DNA of 64,000 nucleotides from a virus (IMGVR_UViG_3300047557_002951:32001-96000), one strand, 5' to 3'; positions 8,746 through 19,655 are shown, counted from the stretch's first letter. The notes: generated by a model not told the origin, from the letters alone. Numbers and translations: made by a program.

Positions 8746-9524
8746 AAGTCAAACTTTGAATAAAGTTTTACATTCTCTTCTCCTATTACATCAATAGGAT
8801 TTTGTGAGATTTTGGATAGATTTGGACGAATATCGTGAAGACCTTTTAATCCCCAAGCTTCATCTTTTTGTTCTCCACAAGCATTATCAATATTATTAAA
8901 GGTATTTGTATGAGAAGGAACTTCTAAAAACTCATAGATTTTATTCAACTCTGCTTCTGGATTTTCTACAAGACTATTATATTCTACCAGATGAACCCAG
9001 TCTGAATATTTTGTGAGACCATAAACCATACTCTCATAAGATGGAGCAACATAATATCTCCAAATATATTCAGCACGATTATTATTTGTGATTGGAAGAT
9101 TGTCTTGTCTTAAATGATTATCAATAAAATTATTTTCGTGCTTTGTTCTTTCTATGAGTGAAATATAAGATGTAAGAACTTCTGGAATAGAACGATATGT
9201 AGCAACAATCTTTGGTTTATTAGAAAGAAACATTTGAACAGTATCAAGGTTCTTACCCCAAAATCTGTGCTTGTCTAGGATTGTTGACTTTGGAATATGA
9301 TTATAAAAGTTAGCAAGAACTGCCTTATAAACATTATAAGATATTGCTTTGCGGTCAAAGGTAAACTGCTGGTCTACTTTGTTGAATGATTGCTCAATAT
9401 CAGTCACCACATCACCTAATGGAGATGTTGGAGATACATAAATGTCTGGATGTTGATTGAGAAGTGAACCCAATAATGTAGAACCACTTCTTGGAAGTCC
9501 TCCAAGAAAATATAATGTCTTCAT
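8742..9524 (-). CDS. PAPS-dependent sulfotransferase
   Basis: 5'-PSB loop GGLPRSGSTLL, 3'-PB motif YRSIPEVLTS, VEYNSLVENP...IYEFL. Confidence 0.85.
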   Translation of the reverse strand: MKTLYFLGGLPRSGSTLLGSLLNQHPDIYVSPTSPLGDVVTDIEQSFNKVDQQFTFDRKAISYNVYKAVLANFYNHIPKSTILDKHRFWGKNLDTVQMFLSNKPKIVATYRSIPEVLTSYISLIERTKHENNFIDNHLRQDNLPITNNNRAEYIWRYYVAPSYESMVYGLTKYSDWVHLVEYNSLVENPEAELNKIYEFLEVPSHTNTFNNIDNACGEQKDEAWGLKGLHDIRPNLSKISQNPIDVIGEENVKLYSKFDL

Positions 9525-9544
9525 AATGTTTTGATTGTTATGAG

Positions 9545-9551
9545 TATTTAG
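9545..9551 (-). promoter_or_regulatory. Late promoter (CTAAATA)
   Basis: Overlaps the RCC1-A stop, about 20 nt upstream of the sulfotransferase ATG. Confidence 0.55.
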
Positions 9552-10732
9552 ATTACTGGGTCAATGTAGGTGAGTGCTGCTGTATAAAAAGTTCTACCAC
9601 TTACTTGCTTCCAGTTGGTTCCACCAGCAAATGTAGTGACTGGAGTTGATACATTGGTTATTTGTGCATTTCCAAGTTGTCCATTATTATTACGACCCCA
9701 AGTCCATAAAGTTCCATTGGTCTTGATTGCAGATGTATGTTCACTTCCACTATTACTATTCACTTGTTTCCAATCGGTTCCTCCAGCAAATGTTGTAACT
9801 GGAGTGGATACATCAGTTGTTGATGCATTTCCAAGTCTTCCAAAATATCCATAACCCCAAGTCCATAGAGTTCCATCGGTTTTAATTGCTACTGTATGAC
9901 CATATCCACTATGCACCTGTTTCCAGTTCGTTCCGCCGGAAAAGGTGGTGATTGGAGTGGATATACTAAATGTTGTTACTACTGCATTTCCAATTCGTCC
10001 ATTAGCACTATTACCCCAAGTCCATAGAGTTCCATCAGTTTTGATTGCTGATGTATGTGAATTTTGAGAACTTACTTGTTTCCAGTTATTTCCTCCAGCA
10101 AATGTAGTAACTGGAGTAGATCTATTGTTTACTTGCGCGTTTCCAAGTTGTCCAAGATTCCCTCGACCCCAAGTCCATAGAGTTCCATCAGTTTTGATTG
10201 CTGATGTATAAGCATATCCACAACTTACTTGTTTCCAGTTGGTTCCTCCAGCAAATGTAGTGACCGGAGTTGATACATTGGTTATTGTTGCATTTCCAAG
10301 TTGTCCAAAATTCCCTCTACCCCAAGTCCATAGAGTTCCATCAGTTTTGATTGCTGATGTATATTGACCTCCACTACTCACTTGCTTCCAGTTGGTTCCT
10401 CCAGCAAATGTAGTGACCGGAGTGGATATACTACCTGTTGTTACTGCATTTCCAAGTCGTCCATAACCTCCATTACCCCAAATCCATAAGGTTCCATCAG
10501 TTTTGATTGCTGCTGTATGATTATCTCCACTACTCACTTGTTTCCAGTTGGTTCCTCCAGTAGAGGTAGTGACTGGAGTGGACCTATTGGTTGTTTGTGC
10601 GTTTCCAAGTCTTCCATAAGTTCCACCACCCCAAGTCCATAAGTTCCCATCACTGAACATATCAGCAGGTACAAAGATATCATCAAAACTATAATCAAGT
10701 CCGTTTTCTCTAAAGTTATAGAATGTAGGCAT
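9548..10732 (-). CDS. RCC1/BLIP-II-like beta-propeller protein A (7 repeats)
   Basis: 7 copies of WTWGxGxxGxLGNA...[32 protein letters not shown]. Confidence 0.9.
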   Translation of the reverse strand: MPTFYNFRENGLDYSFDDIFVPADMFSDGNLWTWGGGTYGRLGNAQTTNRSTPVTTSTGGTNWKQVSSGDNHTAAIKTDGTLWIWGNGGYGRLGNAVTTGSISTPVTTFAGGTNWKQVSSGGQYTSAIKTDGTLWTWGRGNFGQLGNATITNVSTPVTTFAGGTNWKQVSCGYAYTSAIKTDGTLWTWGRGNLGQLGNAQVNNRSTPVTTFAGGNNWKQVSSQNSHTSAIKTDGTLWTWGNSANGRIGNAVVTTFSISTPITTFSGGTNWKQVHSGYGHTVAIKTDGTLWTWGYGYFGRLGNASTTDVSTPVTTFAGGTDWKQVNSNSGSEHTSAIKTNGTLWTWGRNNNGQLGNAQITNVSTPVTTFAGGTNWKQVSGRTFYTAALTYIDPVI

Positions 10733-10753
10733 TTGGAGTTCTTGGAAAAGACT

Positions 10754-11107
10754 TTATTCTACGAAAATCACAGGAGTGTTCATACTTTCACTCCACTTTT
10801 GAAGATATTGTTTAACTTCACTTTTTACTTCTTTATTATTTATTGCTAGTGCTTTTAGATATTGACCATTCTCATTAGTTTCCACAGAGACTAATACATT
10901 ACACTTATCAGGTCTCATTTCTTCTGGAAGTAAATGTTGAGACCAAGCACACTGATAATCTCTACAAACTTCTGGTCGTGCTTTATGAACTCCGCAACCA
11001 TTACACTCTAAAAACTTACAAGATTTTCCTGCTCCAAACTTCCATCCAAAAGCATCACCAATCAACCAAGAACAGCAAGCAGTGCATTCTCCACACTCAC
11101 GAAACAT
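10754..11107 (-). CDS. YkgJ-like Cys-cluster (CxxCxxCC) protein
   Basis: MFRECGECTACC...CKFL...CGVHKARPEVCRDYQC; start moved to ATG 11107. Confidence 0.7.
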   Translation of the reverse strand: MFRECGECTACCSWLIGDAFGWKFGAGKSCKFLECNGCGVHKARPEVCRDYQCAWSQHLLPEEMRPDKCNVLVSVETNENGQYLKALAINNKEVKSEVKQYLQKWSESMNTPVIFVE

Positions 11108-11753
11108 AATCTTCCTCCCTATAATAATGGGTATAAGAATCAAAAATACCCGGTTGATGAATAGATTTTGGATTGGAGTTTGGATTACTTCCTATCCATA
11201 GTTCTCTATCTATACGATAATCACTATAAAGAAATTTATGGTCTAATGTTTGTATGTGTTTTGAAGTTGCCCACCAAAAGTTTCCAGTAAAATTATATGT
11301 ACCTTCTACTGGTTTTGTTGTTGTTCCGTCACTCCATAAAGTTTCTCCAACTGGATTTAAATTTGCACCAACACAATCATAATCATTCAAGTATTCTACA
11401 CACTCTTTCCACTTATCAATCACAAAGTGTTCCATCATTAATCTCCAAGCATTAGCAGTCAAAGTTCCTTTACTTGCTCCCTTCATATGAAAATATAAAA
11501 TCTTATAATCGGGATTTTCATATGCAAAATCTTTAAGAGCAATTAGAGTTTCTGTTTCTTCTTTCCAATTTTTATTGTATAAAACTTTTGCCTTTGACGG
11601 AACATAAAACATTTCTTCATTTCCATTTACACCAATATGAAAATGATTTACTTCATTTAAAAGACCCGATACAAATAATCTATTAATTTGTTGTTGGTAA
11701 ATGAAAGCAGAAATATTATTTTGAAATGTATGATAAAAGACTGCGATTTTCAT
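11097..11753 (-). CDS. Putative glycosyltransferase-like protein
   Basis: ILYFHMKG, YDCVG and GNFWWA motifs, as recalled from proteins in phage/giant-virus glycan clusters. Confidence 0.45.
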   Translation of the reverse strand: MKIAVFYHTFQNNISAFIYQQQINRLFVSGLLNEVNHFHIGVNGNEEMFYVPSKAKVLYNKNWKEETETLIALKDFAYENPDYKILYFHMKGASKGTLTANAWRLMMEHFVIDKWKECVEYLNDYDCVGANLNPVGETLWSDGTTTKPVEGTYNFTGNFWWATSKHIQTLDHKFLYSDYRIDRELWIGSNPNSNPKSIHQPGIFDSYTHYYREEDYVS

Positions 11754-12529
11754 ATATTATATTGGACTCCTTCCATTCCTTTAATTACATTCAACCCAAG
11801 ATTTGGAATGCTAATGATATTCTTTTTATTTAAGAAACGATAAAGAGAATGTTCGACATCAGTTCCAGCAGTAAATTGAATCATTTTTTCCATATAAACA
11901 AATGCTCTTTCAAGTGCTTCAACTGCTTCATTAAATAACATTCTATCAAAAGACCACAAACCAGTAATCATCATACCCTTTGCTCCATAAAGATAGGCAT
12001 AGACATTCTCAAGTTCCTTATCATTAAAGTTTTCTGCTTCTTGTGGAAGATACTCATAACTTTTAATCACATACTTGTTCTCAAGAAACTTACTTTGATA
12101 ATCTTGAATATTAAAATCGTCATTAAGTAAATATCTTCCAGTAAGTTTGAATACTCTTTGACTATCACTAAAAAGATTATGTTTTTTGATTACATAAAGA
12201 CTATTCAATAATCCTCTGGTTTCCAATAAGGATTTTCCATAAGTAATCAGTTCAGGTCTTTTTTCAAGATTTTCATAGATTTGCTGAAGAACTAGTTCAT
12301 TATAAAACTCCAAAAACAAATCTGCTTTTTCTTTGAATATCTCTTTTTGCTTTTCATCAATAGGTTTTGATGAGCACTCAAATAAAACTACATATGAGTC
12401 TGGAACTTTTTTACGAATACATTCAATTGTTTCTAAAGTCTGTTCAAATCTTTGTTGCTCATCATATGCACTAAACTTATCTTCTTGAAAGTGTTTGAGT
12501 GCTGAACCTACTAAAAATAAAAACTTCAT
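11750..12529 (-). CDS. Putative glycan-modifying protein
   Basis: RFEQTLETIECIRKKVP, FKLTGRY and DVEH motifs; context among glycosyltransferases. Confidence 0.4.
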   Translation of the reverse strand: MKFLFLVGSALKHFQEDKFSAYDEQQRFEQTLETIECIRKKVPDSYVVLFECSSKPIDEKQKEIFKEKADLFLEFYNELVLQQIYENLEKRPELITYGKSLLETRGLLNSLYVIKKHNLFSDSQRVFKLTGRYLLNDDFNIQDYQSKFLENKYVIKSYEYLPQEAENFNDKELENVYAYLYGAKGMMITGLWSFDRMLFNEAVEALERAFVYMEKMIQFTAGTDVEHSLYRFLNKKNIISIPNLGLNVIKGMEGVQYNI

Positions 12530-12984
12530 AAGTAATCTGTGTTAAAACTAATAATAATCCGTTCTTCAGTTTCTTCTTCAGTATAATGAACTAAATCACT
12601 TGAAAAGATAGTCAAAAGACCTGGATATGGTTGTACTTGTGTGTCTGGAAATATCAAAGGAGTGCTACCAGAAATATAAAATGCTCCACTTATAATACTT
12701 TCTTCGTGCTTATGTGCCTTGAGTTTATTTCCTGCTTGTGAGATATTGAACCAACTGTTGATAAACTTGAGTGGTGGAATCTCATACTTATTACAATATA
12801 ATCTAACATATTGCTTAAGAATATTTCGCAATCCAGTCAATTCTGGATACATTAGAACAGGCATTCCGTGATTGTAAGTAGAAACACCTTTAGTTACAAG
12901 ACCATGAGAACTGGTTTCTATTTCAAGAAGTTTGGTCTTAATGATATTTAGATTGAGAAAAGAAAGGTTATACTCCTCTATCAT
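12526..12984 (-). CDS. Putative 2OG-Fe(II) oxygenase (TIGR02466-like)
   Basis: SWFN...HKH...SGAFY...PGLLTIFSSDLVH...RIIISFN. Confidence 0.75.
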   Translation of the reverse strand: MIEEYNLSFLNLNIIKTKLLEIETSSHGLVTKGVSTYNHGMPVLMYPELTGLRNILKQYVRLYCNKYEIPPLKFINSWFNISQAGNKLKAHKHEESIISGAFYISGSTPLIFPDTQVQPYPGLLTIFSSDLVHYTEEETEERIIISFNTDYL

Positions 12985-14308
12985 TGAGAAACTCTCCCAG
13001 TTGTTTCAAAGGTTCGTCCCAGTTTCTTGGTTTCTTTTGCTTGAAGAGATGAACATTGTCTCCATACCACCAAGACTTTCCTGTAGAACTTGTCCATACA
13101 TAATATTCCATAATCGGTACAAACACGCAGACTTCTTTGCCTTGTGCTGCTGCGATATGAGCAATAGAAGTGCAAGAAGTAATCACCAAGTCCATTTGAG
13201 ATACAAGTGAAAATGTATCTGTAAAATCACGATTTGGAATATCAAAAGTCTTTACATTATATCCTTCTGGTGGTTGTTGGTCTGGTAGTTGTAGAGAATA
13301 TAAAGATGCTTTTGTCTTTGAGAGAATATCAAAGAGTGGTTCTGGTTGAATAGAACGGAAATGTGCTTGCTCAAATCCAGAACCAGAATTCCAGAATGCT
13401 CCAATCTTATACTTTTTGTCTTCCTTTAGGTATGAATATTGTTCTTCTTTTTCTGGTAGTGGGTTTAGATAAGGAGTTTGACCTAAATCTTCTACTTTGA
13501 GATTGAGATAATAAGGTAGAGCAAGAGCATAAACCCAACAAGCATCCTCTGGAAACTCTGGTTCATCGTAAATACAAACAGAATGAAACCCATTATAGTT
13601 GAAGAGTTTCACCAGTTCTTTTCTTGTAGAAGTCCAAATTGGGTTCATACCAAGTTCTTTGAGGTGCTTCATAAAACGAATATGAATAACCTCATCACCA
13701 GCACCACACTGACTATCAATTAAAATCGTTCTTTCTGGTTCTGGTGTTCCATCCCACTTTGGAAATGGTGGAAGTTGTCGGTTCTTATATGCCTCTACTT
13801 CTCCTGCCTTAAGAAAGTGTTGAAGTCCTGTATGAATATCATCTTTCCTAAAGTAATGACCTGATAAGTTGTGATATGCCTTTCTTTCTATTTCTTCTGG
13901 TAATGGTTTTTTGATGAGGTCAAATAAAAGTTTTTCTGATTTTTCTTTTTGGTTAAGAGCAGAATATGAAAATGTTTCCTCTAAAAGAAGTTCAGTATCT
14001 TGAGGATTTTGCGATTTGATTTTTGAGATTTGAGTGATTGCTTTTTCTGGATAGTTGTTTTGATTATATGCGTTGATTAGATTTTTTGTGGTTGTATATT
14101 TTTCTTCTTTTGATTTAGCAAGTTTGAGTGCCTTCTCACCATAAGTAATCGCATTTGAGAAATCTTTAATCTCAAAGAAAATCTTTGCTACATCATCATA
14201 TTGCTGAAAAGTTTCTGCTCTCTTTCCAAATGCTTGAAGAACTTGTGTCGTCAGTTCTTTTTCATCAAAGGAATATAGAGTCTTTGTGACCAACTCAAGA
14301 GGGTTCAT
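12968..14308 (-). CDS. TPR-repeat protein with GT9-like glycosyltransferase domain
   Basis: N-terminal TPR helices; GAGDEVIHIRF and DFTDT..LVSQMDLVITSCTSIAHIAAAQG...SWWY motifs. Confidence 0.8.
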   Translation of the reverse strand: MNPLELVTKTLYSFDEKELTTQVLQAFGKRAETFQQYDDVAKIFFEIKDFSNAITYGEKALKLAKSKEEKYTTTKNLINAYNQNNYPEKAITQISKIKSQNPQDTELLLEETFSYSALNQKEKSEKLLFDLIKKPLPEEIERKAYHNLSGHYFRKDDIHTGLQHFLKAGEVEAYKNRQLPPFPKWDGTPEPERTILIDSQCGAGDEVIHIRFMKHLKELGMNPIWTSTRKELVKLFNYNGFHSVCIYDEPEFPEDACWVYALALPYYLNLKVEDLGQTPYLNPLPEKEEQYSYLKEDKKYKIGAFWNSGSGFEQAHFRSIQPEPLFDILSKTKASLYSLQLPDQQPPEGYNVKTFDIPNRDFTDTFSLVSQMDLVITSCTSIAHIAAAQGKEVCVFVPIMEYYVWTSSTGKSWWYGDNVHLFKQKKPRNWDEPLKQLGEFLNDRGV

Positions 14309-14330
14309 AAAGAATATTATGTGTTTTCAG

Positions 14331-14338
14331 TATTTATT
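14331..14338 (-). promoter_or_regulatory. Late promoter (AATAAATA)
   Basis: At the RCC1-B stop, about 22 nt upstream of ATG 14308. Confidence 0.6.
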
Positions 14339-15581
14339 AGAAACTTGCGAAGTCTACTGATTTGATTGCTACTGTGTGATTACCTCCAATAGCACTTACT
14401 TGTTTCCAGTTGGTTCCGCCGGCAAAGGTGGTGACTGGAGTGGATTTACTGTTTGTTTCTGCATTTCCAAGTTGTCCACTAGATCCACCACCCCAAGTCC
14501 AAAGAGTTCCATCAGTTTTGATTGCAGATGTATTACGATATCCAGCACCCACTTGTTTCCAGTTGGTTCCTCCAGCGAATGTGGTGACTGGAGTGCTTAT
14601 ATTACCTGTTATTACTGCATTTCCAAGTTGTCCATTAGCACCAAAACCCCAAGTCCATAAAGTTCCATCGGTCTTGATTGCAGATGTATATTCACCTCCA
14701 CTACTCACTTGTTTCCAGTTAGTTCCACCAGCAAATGTTGTTACTGGAGTGGATATACTACCTGTTGTTACTGCGTTTCCAAGTCGTCCATTAGCACTAT
14801 TACCCCAAGACCAAAGAGTTCCATCGGTTTTGATTGCTGACATATGTTGACTTCCACAACTCACTTGTTTCCAGTTGGTTCCTCCAGCAAATGTAGTAAC
14901 TGGAGTTGATACATTGGTTGTTACTGCGTTTCCAAGTCTTCCAAAAGATCCAACACCCCAGGTCCATAAAGTTCCATCGGTCTTGATTGCTGCTGTATGA
15001 TTACCTCCACTACTCACTTGTTTCCAGTTATTTCCTCCAGCAAATGTGGTGACTGGAGTTGATATATTACCTGTTGTTACTGCGTTTCCAAGTTTTCCAC
15101 CAGATCCACTACCCCAAGTCCATAGGGTTCCGTCAGTTTTGATTGCTGCTATAAAATCACCTCCAATAGACGGTGGTGGACCAGCACTGACTTGTTTCCA
15201 GTTAGTTCCTCCAGCGAATGTTGTAACTGGAGTGGACCTATTGGTTGTTTGTGCGTTTCCAAGTCTCCCATAAGTTCCAAAACCCCAAGTCCATAAAGTT
15301 CCATCAGTTTTGATTGCTGCATTAAAACCATTTCCACCACTCACTTGTTTCCAATTGGTTCCTCCAGCAAAAGTAGTGATTGGAGTGGACCTATTACCTG
15401 TTGTTGTTCCATTTCCAAGAATTGAAACATTTCCAAGACCCCAAATCCACAACTCAGGAGGAATACCAATCTGCTGACCAATCTCAGGATAAACACTAAT
15501 TAAATAATCTTTAGTGACCAGTTTATTCCCTAAATCAACACCATTACTATCTTTAAAGTTAGTAGTTGGTTCTATGCTCAT
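14337..15581 (-). CDS. RCC1/BLIP-II-like beta-propeller protein B (7 repeats)
   Basis: 7 copies of the same ~52-aa unit; one loop insertion (PPPSIGGD). Confidence 0.9.
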   Translation of the reverse strand: MSIEPTTNFKDSNGVDLGNKLVTKDYLISVYPEIGQQIGIPPELWIWGLGNVSILGNGTTTGNRSTPITTFAGGTNWKQVSGGNGFNAAIKTDGTLWTWGFGTYGRLGNAQTTNRSTPVTTFAGGTNWKQVSAGPPPSIGGDFIAAIKTDGTLWTWGSGSGGKLGNAVTTGNISTPVTTFAGGNNWKQVSSGGNHTAAIKTDGTLWTWGVGSFGRLGNAVTTNVSTPVTTFAGGTNWKQVSCGSQHMSAIKTDGTLWSWGNSANGRLGNAVTTGSISTPVTTFAGGTNWKQVSSGGEYTSAIKTDGTLWTWGFGANGQLGNAVITGNISTPVTTFAGGTNWKQVGAGYRNTSAIKTDGTLWTWGGGSSGQLGNAETNSKSTPVTTFAGGTNWKQVSAIGGNHTVAIKSVDFASF

Positions 15582-15582
15582 T

Positions 15583-16242
15583 TTATCCCTCTACTGGTTC
15601 TGGTTGTTCTTTAATCACAACAGCATAAACAGCATCAATTTCCACACAAGCATCAATTTCTTGAAGTTTTGCTAACTCCCAGTCAAATGCTGCCTGAACA
15701 ACGGCATCAATCTCACTTATAATCGTTTGAAGTTCTTCTGTAGTAATCTCCAACCAAGTATTCTGGAACTTAAAGTTATGAGGTCCTGGAGATGCTGCTA
15801 ACTTGCTTGCTAAAAGAAGTCTCTCTTCTCTTGAAGTTGATACTTCTACTTCCGTATTATTGACTATGAGAGTGATGATAGTATTTTCTTTTTCTCTTCT
15901 TGCTGGAGCAACCTCTTGCTTTCTAATATTTTTAACTTCTTCTAAGGTCTTATCTGTGATTGGATAAGTGAATACAACCTTTACTGGAACCTCATTTTCT
16001 TTTACAATTTCCCAAGTGAAGTTTCCAACATTATGATACTTTGGGTCGTGTTCTGGTATTACTCTTTCAGTTGGAACAAGATGAGTAAGACCATCACTAA
16101 AATGAATAGGAAGTGAAGAAAAACTTTGTGATGATATTCTTTCTTCTACTTCAAGTTCTTCTAACTCTTCATTGATATAACGAACATTCAATCCAAAAGG
16201 ACCAAGTTCTAATGAGTTATTATGAATAAGTGCGATTTCCAT
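15583..16242 (-). CDS. DUF4376-like tail fibre assembly/chaperone protein
   Basis: Start MEIALIHNN at 16242, after the late promoter at 16256-16263; C-terminal helical VQAAFDWE..KLQEIDA pattern. Confidence 0.55.
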   Translation of the reverse strand: MEIALIHNNSLELGPFGLNVRYINEELEELEVEERISSQSFSSLPIHFSDGLTHLVPTERVIPEHDPKYHNVGNFTWEIVKENEVPVKVVFTYPITDKTLEEVKNIRKQEVAPARREKENTIITLIVNNTEVEVSTSREERLLLASKLAASPGPHNFKFQNTWLEITTEELQTIISEIDAVVQAAFDWELAKLQEIDACVEIDAVYAVVIKEQPEPVEG

Positions 16243-16255
16243 TGGTCTTTTTAGG

Positions 16256-16263
16256 TATTTATG
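16256..16263 (-). promoter_or_regulatory. Late promoter (CATAAATA)
   Basis: Directly after the RCC1-C stop. Confidence 0.6.
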
Positions 16264-16264
16264 T

Positions 16265-17149
16265 TTATGAGAATGGGTATTCTGCTGAGATTCCTGCTTG
16301 GACTGCTGCTGTATGAGAAGATATACTAGCACTAACTTGTTTCCAGTTGGTTCCACCAGCAAATGTGGTGATTGGAGTGGATCTATTACCTACTATTACT
16401 GCATTTCCAAGTCTTCCATAAGACCCAAGACCCCAAGTCCATAAGGTTCCATCAGTTTTGATTGCTGCTGTATGAAAATATCCACTACTTACTTGTTTCC
16501 AGTTGGTTCCTCCAGCAAATGTAGTGACTGGAGTTGATACATTGGTTGTTACTGCGTTTCCAAGTTGTCCAGTATTTCCACGACCCCAAGTCCATAGAGT
16601 TCCATCGGTTTTAATTGCTACTGTATATTGGTATCCACTACTCACTTGTTTCCAGTTGGTTCCTCCAGCAAATGTGGTGACTGGAGTGGATCTACTGGTT
16701 ATTGCTGCATTTCCAAGTTGTCCATTAGTTCCACCACCCCAAGTCCATAAGGTTCCATCAGTCTTGATTGCTGCTGTATGATTACCTCCAACACTTACTT
16801 GTTTCCAGTTGTTCCCTCCAGCAAATGTGGTGACTGGAGTGGATATAGTACCTGTTGTTACTCCATTTCCAAGTTGTCCACTAGTTCCAATTCCCCAAGT
16901 CCATAAAGTTCCATCAGTTTTGATTGCTGCTGTGCAATTACTAGCACCACTAACTTGTTTCCAGTTGGTTCCTCCAGCAAATGTGGTGACTGGAGTGGAT
17001 ATATTGGTTATTGCTGCATTTCCAAGTTGTCCACTAGGTCCAGAACCCCAAGTCCATAAAGTATCTCCAACATATTGGTCAATCAACCAATAATCAGTTA
17101 CAAAATAGTTTTCTAAGTCACCTTCTGGCGAGAAAAACTGATTAGGCAT
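16265..17149 (-). CDS. RCC1/BLIP-II-like beta-propeller protein C (5 repeats)
   Basis: 5 copies of the same unit; start overlaps the end of the collagen fibre gene. Confidence 0.9.
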
Positions 17150-19655
17150 CTAACTTATTTTCCAGATTTTCAATTCTAATTTGCTGTTCTTTAATTGCTT
17201 CAATCAAAAGGCCAACCATATTAGAGTAATTTACTGACTTAATGCCATTACTATTTGTTTCGACAAGTTCTGGGAGTATATTTTCTACTTCTTGCGCAAT
17301 CAAACCAAGTGAAGGTTTGTTATTATTTACCCAATTGAATGTAACTCCTTGGAGTTTTTTTATAGTTTGAATTGGGGATTCAATTGGTTTTATGTTAGTT
17401 TTATGTGTTGCGTCTGATAATGAATTAAAGATATTAGCGAATAGAGTTCCAGTTAGTGGGTTAAATTGTAAGTTAGTTGATGAAACATTTACACTAGTTA
17501 CGGTTCCGCTAATCGCATCATCAAATATGGGATATCTGATTGCATCACTTGTCGTATCATCAGTGATAGTAAATCCACCATTATTTGCACCTTGGACACC
17601 TTGTGCTCCCTGGACACCTTGTGTACCTGTTGCTCCTTGTGCACCTTGTGTACCTGTTGCTCCTTGTGCACCTGTTGCTCCCTGGACACCTTGTGTACCT
17701 GTTGCTCCTTGTGCTCCTTGTGCACCTTGTGTACCTGTTGCTCCTTGTGCTCCTTGTGCACCTTGTGTACCTGTTGCTCCTTGTGCTCCTTGTGCACCTT
17801 GTGTACCTGTTGCTCCTTGTGCACCTGTTGCTCCCTGGACACCTTGTGTACCTGTTGCTCCTTGTGCTCCTTGTGCACCTTGTGTACCTGTTGCTCCTTG
17901 TGCTCCTTGTGCACCTTGTGTACCTGTTGCTCCTTGTGCTCCTTGTGCACCTTGTGTACCTGTTGCTCCTTGTGCACCTGTTGCTCCCTGGACACCTTGT
18001 GTACCTGTTGCTCCTTGTGCTCCCTGGACACCTTGTGTACCTGTTGCTCCTTGTGCACCTGTTGCTCCCTGGACACCTTGTGTACCTGTTGCTCCTTGTG
18101 CTCCCTGGACACCTTGAGCACCTTGAACTCCTTGTGCGCCTTGAACTCCTTGAGCACCTTGGACACCTTGAAGAGCTTGAGGTCCTTCTGGACCTTGAGC
18201 ACCTTGGACACCTTGAGCACCTTGGGCACCCTGACGGCCCTGAGCGCCTGTTGCGCCTTGAACTCCTTGTGCTCCTTGTGCTCCTTGAACACCTTGTGCT
18301 CCTTGTGGACCTTCAATTCCCTGTGGACCTGTAGCACCTTGAACACCTTGTGCTCCTTGTGGCCCTTGGACTCCTTGAAGAGCTTGAGGTCCTGTAGCAC
18401 CTTGAACTCCTTGAGCTCCTTGAGCTCCTTGAGCTCCTTGACGACCTTGTGCGCCTTGAGCCCCCACAGCACCCTGGACTCCCTGGGCACCTTGAACTCC
18501 TTGAGCACCTGTTGCTCCTTGAATACCTTGAGCACCCTGTACTCCCTGAGCTCCTTGAACACCTTGAGCACCTTGAGCACCTTGTGCGCCTTGAGTCCCC
18601 ACAGCACCCTGGACTCCCTGGGCACCTTGTGCACCTTGTGCACCTTGGGCACCTTGAACTCCTTGTGCTCCCTGCTCTCCTTGAGGACCAACAATAGTTC
18701 CAACATCATTCCAATTAGATCCAGTATATATCCACAAATTTCCAGTATCTGCCGCAATTACACCGTCTCCAATTGATGGAGGATACCAAGAAAAAAGAGT
18801 ATCATCTGAAGTTAATGTAGTATTTGGACTTGAAGTAGTAACCGATGGGACAGAACCAACTATTGTTACTGAAGTTCCATTTTGTCCTTGTGCTCCTTGA
18901 GCACCTTGAGCACCTTGAACTCCTTGGGCACCTTGAACTCCTTGGGCACCTTGAACTCCTTGGGCACCTTGGGCACCTTGGGCACCTTGGGCACCTTGGG
19001 CACCTACAGAACCTTGAACTCCTTGGGCACCTTGAACTCCTTGAGAACCCTGGACACCTTGAGAACCCTGGACACCTTGAGGTCCAGTACCACCCTGGAC
19101 ACCTTGAGGTCCAGTAGCACCCTGGATACCTTGGGATCCTTGAATACCTTCAACTCCTTGTGAACCTATGGCACCTTGAACACCTTGTAGACCTGTGGCA
19201 CCTTGAATTCCTTGAAATCCTTGGATACCTTGAAATCCTTGAGCACCAACAGCACCCTGGACTCCTTGTGCTCCTTGTGGACCTTGAATTCCTTGTGGGC
19301 CTGTGGAACCTTGAACTCCTTGAGCACCTTGAAATCCCTGAAGACCTTGACTGCCTAGCGGTTCACCCCAATATGCTGAATTTATACCATTTGATATTAA
19401 AACTTGTCCAGCAGACCCAGAACCGCTTTCTGTATATAAAGCCCCACTGAATCTGATATCACCAAGAACATCTAACTCTGATGTAGTTAAGATTCCGCTA
19501 ATCGATACATTCCCAAGAATATCTAATTTTTCTTTTGGCTGGGTAGATCCAATCCCAACATTAAACCCTGCGTCAGAATTTATAATTATATTTTGTGTAG
19601 AGTCATCAACTTGAATAAAATTTGCAAATTGAGATAGTTCTCTATTTATAGACAT
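17142..19655 (-). CDS. Collagen-like tail fibre with C-terminal S74-type intramolecular chaperone
   Basis: NVGIGST motif; about 53 + 123 Gly-X-Y triplets (mostly G-X-Q); C-terminal [10 protein letters not shown]...[13 protein letters not shown]...[16 protein letters not shown]. Confidence 0.9.
17590..18115 (-). repeat. Near-perfect 9-nt-periodic tandem repeat (27/36-nt units) encoding [12 protein letters not shown]
   Basis: Repeated ccttgtgtacctgttgctccttgtgc(t/a) units with identical codon usage. Confidence 0.9.

Follow-up and report, generated by a model that had tools for sequence, protein, structure and literature searches.

Three RCC1-type beta-propeller genes in the tail-fibre module of a probable freshwater T4-like cyanophage combine a concertedly evolving scaffold with hypervariable loops

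How does a phage keep the framework of nineteen protein repeats nearly invariant while three short loops of the same repeats become hypervariable, and what would such proteins be used for? The question is raised by three RCC1-type beta-propeller genes, here called A, B and C, in a 64,000-nt stretch of viral DNA (IMGVR_UViG_3300047557_002951:32001-96000; hereafter the window), which belongs to a 159.6-kb IMG/VR virus record estimated to be 75% complete and whose closest isolate is the freshwater Synechococcus myovirus S-SRM01 (Kyanoviridae). An initial annotation, made from the sequence alone, had described 7+7+5 = 19 copies of one RCC1 unit in these genes with variation, including indels, in three loops, and our analysis bears this description out. 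All three proteins match the Pfam RCC1 repeat and RCC1-like domain (PF00415 / PF25390) with E-values of 1e-45 to 1e-77, in seven, seven and five stretches for A, B and C, respectively, far above the curated cut-offs, and a profile search of the three proteins returned RCC1 domains only and no NOD/STAND domain. Delimiting the units by anchoring on the W.WG motif also gave seven, seven and five blades (Table 1), each of 51-57 amino acids. Within the window the 19 blades are on average 72% identical in amino acids (55-90%) and 79% identical in nucleotides (68-90%). Their near-invariant framework consists of LW.WG, G.LGNA, a stretch of 16 residues and AIKTDGT, and substitutions and indels concentrate in loop 1 (WG-xGxx-G), loop 2 (NA-xxT..xx-STP) and loop 3 (VS-x..Gxx-H/Y). 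Taken as a whole, the explanation that we favour, and that we hold to be moderately probable, is that a concertedly evolving scaffold carries selected loops on one face and forms a virion-borne host-binding module of a freshwater T4-like cyanophage.

We scanned IMG/VR and obtained 69 loci; in 28 related freshwater cyanomyovirus loci, including S-SRM01, the three genes could be told apart by their gene-specific N-terminal segments and C-terminal tails. A comparison with related phage genomes had been suggested by the initial annotation, and it revealed the same three genes with blades that lack positional orthology. The propeller genes are 58-75% identical to those of relatives whose flanking genes are mostly 83-96% identical, and blades at corresponding positions of these genes resemble each other no more than randomly paired blades do, whether at the silent sites of the framework or in the loops; the five genes of the block between A and B served as divergence controls. 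When blades were compared by the third codon positions of their framework, the nearest neighbour lay in the same genome for 46% of 270 blades (6.3% expected by chance), about half of these neighbours sitting in another of the three genes, and it was the positional orthologue for 4.8% of the blades (4.4% by chance). Lineage-specific synonymous codons run across most blades of all three genes, namely CTT/CTA/TTG at column 12, GTG/GTT at column 36 and AGT/TCT at column 37. Moreover, codons that are rare in the genome (GTC 0.10, ATC 0.17, AAC 0.16, ACC 0.11 and TCC 0.06) occupy fixed framework positions in most blades, and therefore codon bias cannot account for the likeness of the blades. Since the isolate S-SRM01 shares the pattern, assembly error is not its cause. 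Thus, the scaffold of all blades in the three genes evolves in concert. The view that the framework is invariant down to its codons holds only in part: rare codons do recur by position, but synonymous differences among the 19 window blades amount to pS = 0.32. Even toward distant relatives, framework pS is 0.42-0.52, compared with mostly 0.5-0.65 in flanking genes. The rare codons GTC in STPV, ATC in AIK, AAC in TNW and ACC in GGTN persist in distant relatives, toward which the flanks are near saturation at silent sites; candidate explanations of this retention are selection on the DNA or on translation rate, biased conversion, and exchange between phages.

Loops move between blades on this scaffold. 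Identical loop alleles occur within a genome five to six times as often as expected, with 23, 52 and 10 pairs for loops 1, 2 and 3, respectively, against 3.6, 8.8 and 2.1 when the alleles were dealt at random among genomes (permutation; p <= 5e-4 for each loop). The sharing concerns a single loop in 76 pairs, two loops in three pairs and all three loops in one pair, and is often between genes. Pairs sharing one loop are 97-99% identical in the nucleotides of that loop, and the identity of the adjacent framework is raised for loop 2 (0.89 vs 0.76, p = 4e-15) and loop 3 (0.88 vs 0.80, p = 0.03), the values for loop 1 being 0.82 vs 0.78 (p = 0.08), while that of the distant framework is raised little or not at all. 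Such sharing of single loops with local flank identity is the footprint of short-tract gene conversion. In the window, the three instances singled out by the initial annotation proved exact, namely, a 41-nt identity between A1 and B2, a 39-nt identity between B4 and C4 around VTTNV, and the mosaic blade B5, which joins segments of A5 and A2 (Table 1). Six informative sites of B5 in a row agree with one parent and those that follow mostly with the other (nominal p ~7e-4). Only four loop alleles recur inside the window among its 57 loops. In the related locus L007, the A2/B5 pair likewise has a common loop 3 and a near-common loop 2, with alleles of L007's own, indicating that exchange between A2 and B5 went on in both lineages. 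Furthermore, two pairs of otherwise identical genes differ in their repeats only by the clean, in-frame loss of exactly one or two blades, with the junction in the framework; such a loss could be due either to unequal recombination or to assembly collapse over identical stretches. Recombination over the framework, within and between the three genes, as proposed by the initial annotation, is thus supported by the concerted evolution of the scaffold, the single-loop patches with raised flank identity and the clean whole-blade deletions.

Where do new loop variants come from? Among 385 blades we counted 291, 271 and 314 distinct alleles of loops 1, 2 and 3, respectively, most of which are singletons. 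As the alleles are mostly unique, reassortment of a limited pool of cassettes is not the main generator, and the combinatorial reassortment that the initial annotation had taken to be the main source of diversity finds no support. Instead, substitutions and indels supply most of the new variants, which recombination then spreads and brings into new combinations. For the loops, the ratio of nonsynonymous to synonymous differences per site (pN/pS) amounts to 1.29 (p = 2.5e-7) over 172 disjoint pairs of nearest-neighbour blades, to 1.64 for pairs at intermediate distance and to 3.1 for the 15 closest pairs, and for the framework it is 0.22-0.29; the proposed selection test, done by pairwise counting, thus yields 1.3-3.1 for the loops against 0.2-0.3 for the framework. 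In addition, the third base of hypervariable codons is specific to the position (NNT or NNA) and is retained far beyond what their amino acids and the codon usage of the genome predict, with z up to 17. At column 8, for instance, 16 amino acids are found, yet 88% of the codons are NNT, compared with 55% expected (z = 14). This retention of third bases is consistent with amino-acid changes having been fixed rapidly on a background that the blades shared until recently.

We then considered where the loops lie on the propeller. We modelled A with AlphaFold2 from an alignment of 14 sequences; the model has a predicted local distance difference test score (pLDDT) of 61.6 and a predicted template modelling score (pTM) of 0.71, and resembles the seven-bladed RCC1-like domains of UVR8, HERC1/2, RPGR and RCC1 with template modelling (TM) scores of 0.70-0.77. 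A single-sequence model of the five-blade protein C (pLDDT 32, pTM 0.22) is uninformative on the closure of a five-blade ring. The predicted strands of a blade are WKQVS (strand A), HTAAIK (B), LWTWG (C) and STPVT (D), with loops 1 and 2 accordingly between strands C and D and loop 3 in the hairpin of strands A and B. An antiparallel meander would put the C-D and A-B connections on the same face and the invariant FAGGTN and KTDGT turns on the opposite one. In the phmmer alignment to UVR8, column 8 corresponds to D96, column 19 to D107 and columns 40-41 to W233/R234 of the GWRHT motif, which returns one blade later as W285/R286. Across the dimer interface of UVR8, salt bridges link R286 of one monomer to D96 and D107 of the other, and R234 also takes part in salt bridging at this interface (PMC5091643). 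The variable loops would thus match the surface through which UVR8 dimerises, a face of this fold known to bind protein, and the suggestion that they share one face is consistent with topology and with the UVR8 alignment.

The genomic setting suggests a use for such a face. A, B and C are encoded inside the tail/fibre module, as accessory proteins of the tail fibres would be: further fibre and baseplate-wedge genes lie upstream, and fibre and baseplate genes flank the propeller region on both sides. C begins 8 nt before the collagen-like fibre gene ends, and this overlap suggests translational coupling. The order of the three genes is unchanged in S-SRM01 (gp335, gp337 and gp344), where they lie between its long-tail-fibre gene and a sulfotransferase/glycosyltransferase block, and in the 28 loci the propeller genes adjoin tail-fibre genes; the paper on S-SRM01 does not discuss these genes. 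All three proteins match phrog_4219, the family of RCC1 proteins (three tandem genes, ~40 kDa) detected by mass spectrometry in virions of the E. coli phage W70, and an RCC1-like protein was likewise detected by mass spectrometry in virions of GAP32. Because of the position among fibre genes, the apparent coupling to a fibre gene and the selected variable face, we favour a role at the host surface, and the three proteins would most likely be a virion-borne binding or adhesin module that works with the fibres. The mechanism that we propose is as follows. A, B and C would be paralogous RCC1-type propellers of the tail-fibre/baseplate module, in which a short, gene-specific N-terminal segment, conserved between phages, may be the docking element and is followed by blades whose scaffold is almost frozen. 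Gene conversion of short tracts, together with unequal recombination across the framework DNA, would homogenise the scaffold of all 19-21 blades of a genome, and the same recombination would shift single loops between blades and genes and alter the number of blades. Diversifying selection on the three one-face loops of each blade would fix substitutions and indels faster than silent changes. The outcome would be a variable binding face on a constant scaffold, renewed over evolutionary time and not per infection.

Other explanations account for part of these observations. If the proteins were intracellular binders directed against host defences or serving host takeover, with a variable face that tracks variable host proteins, they would not be virion parts. 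Diversifying selection on a binding face suits any arms race, a structural relative, BLIP-II, binds beta-lactamases, and the DNA directly upstream of A, B and C contains no late-promoter motif. However, in every relative examined the genes are embedded in, and apparently coupled to, fibre/baseplate genes, and phage RCC1 proteins of phrog_4219 in W70 and an RCC1-like one in GAP32 occur in virions, so that we regard this explanation as unlikely. It is distinctly improbable that no adaptive diversification took place and that unconstrained loops have simply drifted since a recent amplification of the blades. Loop pN (0.38-0.46) is indeed not far above the pS of flanking genes (0.26-0.58), but loop pN/pS exceeds 1 and peaks, at 3.1, in the least diverged blade pairs, and the third bases of hypervariable codons are retained far past the prediction from codon usage. 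The arrangement of three genes with mostly seven blades each is also conserved clade-wide, which implies that the amplification is old and the homogenisation ongoing. We consider it very improbable that the proteins condense DNA or sit in the inner capsid, as their family name, 'regulator of chromosome condensation', might suggest: apart from that name there is only the speculation in the phAPEC6 and W70 papers, and neither hypervariable, positively selected one-face loops nor a location among fibre genes would be expected of a protein that packs DNA.

Could a dedicated mechanism generate the loops? A diversity-generating retroelement (DGR) would give NNT codons by adenine mutagenesis of AAT, and several hypervariable codons are NNT; but others are NNA with the A retained, no template repeat was found, and reverse transcriptase (RVT_1) was found neither in the 75%-complete record nor in three 100%-complete relatives nor in S-SRM01. 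Loop mutagenesis by such an element is therefore effectively refuted, and the process is independent of reverse transcription, as had been supposed. The initial annotation had also likened the genes to antibodies and variable lymphocyte receptors. In its strong form, this idea would mean a programmed or high-frequency system in which dedicated shuffling or antigenic variation from a cassette pool creates many receptor variants per population. Single loops do travel between blades and genes, the framework DNA, rare codons included, is conserved clade-wide, and sequencing runs that hold this phage contain blade-like contigs with loops foreign to the window. Nevertheless, we give this idea little credence. 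Loop alleles are mostly unique, we identified neither a dedicated recombinase nor a mutator nor a silent store of cassettes, the contigs with foreign loops may come from co-occurring strains, and genome pairs that are 98-100% identical have no loop change across ~370 blade codons, which leaves no sign of per-generation hypermutation. As for these contigs, which concern window positions 9400-17300, they come from runs X1 and X2, in which this phage is found exactly, and they include blade-like pieces whose framework matches the window and whose loop letters are absent from it (e.g. between 10058 and 16952); these pieces could stem either from missing blades or from co-occurring strains. Logan contigs of four runs break inside the repeats and decide neither the blade count of C nor the presence of loop variants within the population. 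A higher summed Logan depth over C was due to cross-mapping and was not taken as evidence.

Several points weigh against the host-binding module that we favour, or against parts of it. Both its presence in the virion and its binding to the host are inferred here, and the late-promoter motif TATAAATA occurs only three times in the window, below chance, and not directly upstream of A, B or C. The pN/pS values come from pairwise counting on recombining repeats rather than from a codon model. Confidence in the model of A is moderate (pLDDT 61.6) and its loop 2 is poorly modelled; therefore, the evidence for a common face of the loops is that of topology and of the alignment to UVR8. Most relatives are metagenome assemblies, in which repeats may collapse or be misjoined, although the cultured S-SRM01 gives the same pattern. 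Finally, of the recombination tests that had been proposed, the pairwise homoplasy index (PHI) is only nominally significant for the window blades (p = 0.004 at 20 nt and 0.41 at 40 nt), and mosaic triplets in the window (p <= 3e-4) are lost on correction for 2891 triplets; in PHI and three-sequence tests, moreover, neighbouring sites inside one loop are not independent. A GENECONV-style run test with shuffled polymorphic sites was not relied on, because the signal was dominated by shared gap columns in its first version, and by columns varying only in three terminal blades and by the clustering of slow sites in its second.

Among known systems, the closest process is that of the WD40 repeats of the HNWD genes (het-d, het-e and het-r), which encode NLR-like proteins of Podospora anserina (PMC1805685; PMC4986451). 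The HNWD and phage genes are alike in having beta-propeller repeats that evolve in concert within and between paralogues, a variable number of repeats, positively selected surface positions and a diversity that comes from mutation supply, reshuffling and selection. However, the phage genes encode RCC1 and not WD40 repeats, belong to a phage and not a fungus, have no NOD/STAND domain and undergo no repeat-induced point mutation. They vary three whole loops with indels, whereas HNWD varies four point positions, and their mean blade identity of 72% in amino acids and 79% in nucleotides (best pairs 90%) does not reach the 85% threshold for high internal conservation of Dyrka et al. Their presumed role is also one of attack, by host binding, and that of HNWD is non-self recognition. 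The phage genes thus operate like HNWD genes and are not members of that family. W70 gp237-239 (phrog_4219), GAP32 gp1 and 11 RCC1-like proteins of phAPEC6 also come as several tandem copies of ~40 kDa; among these proteins of large E. coli myoviruses, presence in the virion has been shown for W70 and GAP32 only. They are distant in sequence, and the papers on them report no concerted evolution or hypervariable loops and suggest DNA condensation, a guess from the family name for proteins whose function is there called unknown. UVR8, the RCC1-like domains of HERC1/HERC2, RPGR, human RCC1 and BLIP-II have the seven-bladed fold that is predicted for A (TM scores of 0.70-0.77; phmmer E-values down to 3e-54). 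However, these solved domains have strongly diverged blades with no sign of homogenisation and serve unrelated functions (photoreceptor, guanine nucleotide exchange factor, ligase adaptor). Guanine nucleotide exchange and binding to chromatin or DNA are not general to RCC1-like repeat proteins, and none of the present observations points to either. The repeats of Xanthomonas TAL effectors are likewise near-identical tandem repeats with a short hypervariable specificity element, and new specificities arise there by repeat recombination; but each of them has two variable residues, together they build a DNA-binding helical solenoid, and their family and fold are different. A constant scaffold with a hypervariable surface is also found in the tail-associated receptor-binding proteins diversified by DGRs (Mtd of Bordetella phage BPP-1; tentaclins, PMC10743442), from which the phage genes differ by having no reverse transcriptase, template repeat or adenine-specific pattern and by their evolutionary time scale.

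The relatives also show how blade number varies. At least 7962 relatives were found in public protein data at E <= 1e-20, and tblastn identities to other phage RCC1 genes are 24-35%. Seven is the usual number of blades in the three-gene orthologues, and ~13 to 35 are found in fused proteins; the exceptions with five or six blades are C of the window, B of locus L014, A of L050 and C of S-SRM01. This polymorphism in repeat number (5, 6 and 7 blades) may include assembly collapse in the metagenomic cases. The C orthologues scored in relatives have mostly seven blades, that of S-SRM01 six, and the five blades of C in the window could reflect either a real two-blade deletion or assembly collapse. 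Giant fused forms are L018:1-5658 (at least 1886 amino acids, 35 blades), L017:211-3720 (1170 amino acids, 21 blades), L010:4027-6402 (792 amino acids, 14 blades) and L037:2172-5648 (1159 amino acids, 20 blades), and they would be chains of two to five propellers per protein. Some C orthologues, namely L009:813-2573 (587 amino acids in total) and L055:3743-5806 (688 amino acids in total), carry behind the propeller a long C-terminal extension that consists of a proline-rich linker and then another domain. In the window, antisense frames are open over several blades on the plus strand (14410-14850, 9615-9854, 16503-16781 and 16809-17093; up to 146 amino acids), probably as a by-product of the codon content of the repeats. 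Among the neighbouring genes listed in Table 1, the collagen-like fibre protein contains hundreds of Gly-X-Gln triplets, is almost free of proline and ends in an S74 self-cleaving chaperone domain. A hypothetical gene between A and B (11097-11753, 218 amino acids) is 47-58% identical to the copy of close relatives, its neighbours being mostly 83-96% identical, and it shares 83% identity with that of L069, a locus otherwise distant; it looks horizontally swapped within the conserved block.

Table 1. Propeller genes, blades, neighbouring genes and shared stretches in the window
Feature	Position	Strand	Remarks
RCC1 propeller gene A	9548..10732	-	394 amino acids, 7 blades; conserved N-terminal 30 amino acids (MPTFYNF..YSFDD.FVPAD); C-terminal tail ALTYIDPVI
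Blades of A	A1 10490-10642, A2 10334-10489, A3 10181-10333, A4 10028-10180, A5 9869-10027, A6 9710-9868, A7 9554-9709		
RCC1 propeller gene B	14337..15581	-	414 amino acids, 7 blades; conserved N-terminal 43 amino acids; C-terminal tail AIKSVDFASF
Blades of B	B1 15297-15452, B2 15126-15296, B3 14970-15125, B4 14817-14969, B5 14661-14816, B6 14505-14660, B7 14349-14504		
RCC1 propeller gene C	16265..17149	-	294 amino acids, only 5 blades; N- and C-terminal tails intact
Blades of C	C1 16907-17059, C2 16751-16906, C3 16598-16750, C4 16445-16597, C5 16289-16444		
Mosaic blade B5	14661-14816	-	Loop 1 (NSAN) as A5; loops 2-3 (VTTGSI, SGGEY) as A2
41-nt identity, A1/B2	10572-10612 = 15226-15266	-	RLGNAQTTNRSTPV; spans loop 2 QTTNR and flanks
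39-nt identity, B4/C4	14899-14937 = 16527-16565	-	Spans loop 2 VTTNV and flanks
Five genes between A and B	10754..14308	-	TPR protein, 2OG-Fe(II) oxygenase, three hypothetical proteins; syntenic in S-SRM01
DUF4376 protein	15583..16242	-	Between C and B; weak tail-fibre PHROG matches; position kept in relatives
Collagen-like fibre protein	17142..19655	-	837 amino acids; C-terminal Peptidase_S74 intramolecular chaperone domain; directly upstream of C

It is quite unlikely, in our judgement, that the repeat architecture is itself a selected evolvability device, in which framework DNA, rare codons included, is kept so that phage recombination can exchange loops and blades. If this were true, many variants with swapped loops or altered blade number would coexist in natural populations and perhaps even in one lysate, and the genes would be a recombination-based generator of host-recognition diversity without a reverse transcriptase. 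Unlike the guess of DNA condensation, the evolutionary signature described here points to a binding module in an arms race. If the virion-borne host-binding module that we favour is real, abundant freshwater cyanophages would recognise their hosts through a second layer made of propellers, phages would have a counterpart to the way in which fungal HNWD genes diversify, and the proteins would make up a natural family of binders with a constant scaffold and variable loops.

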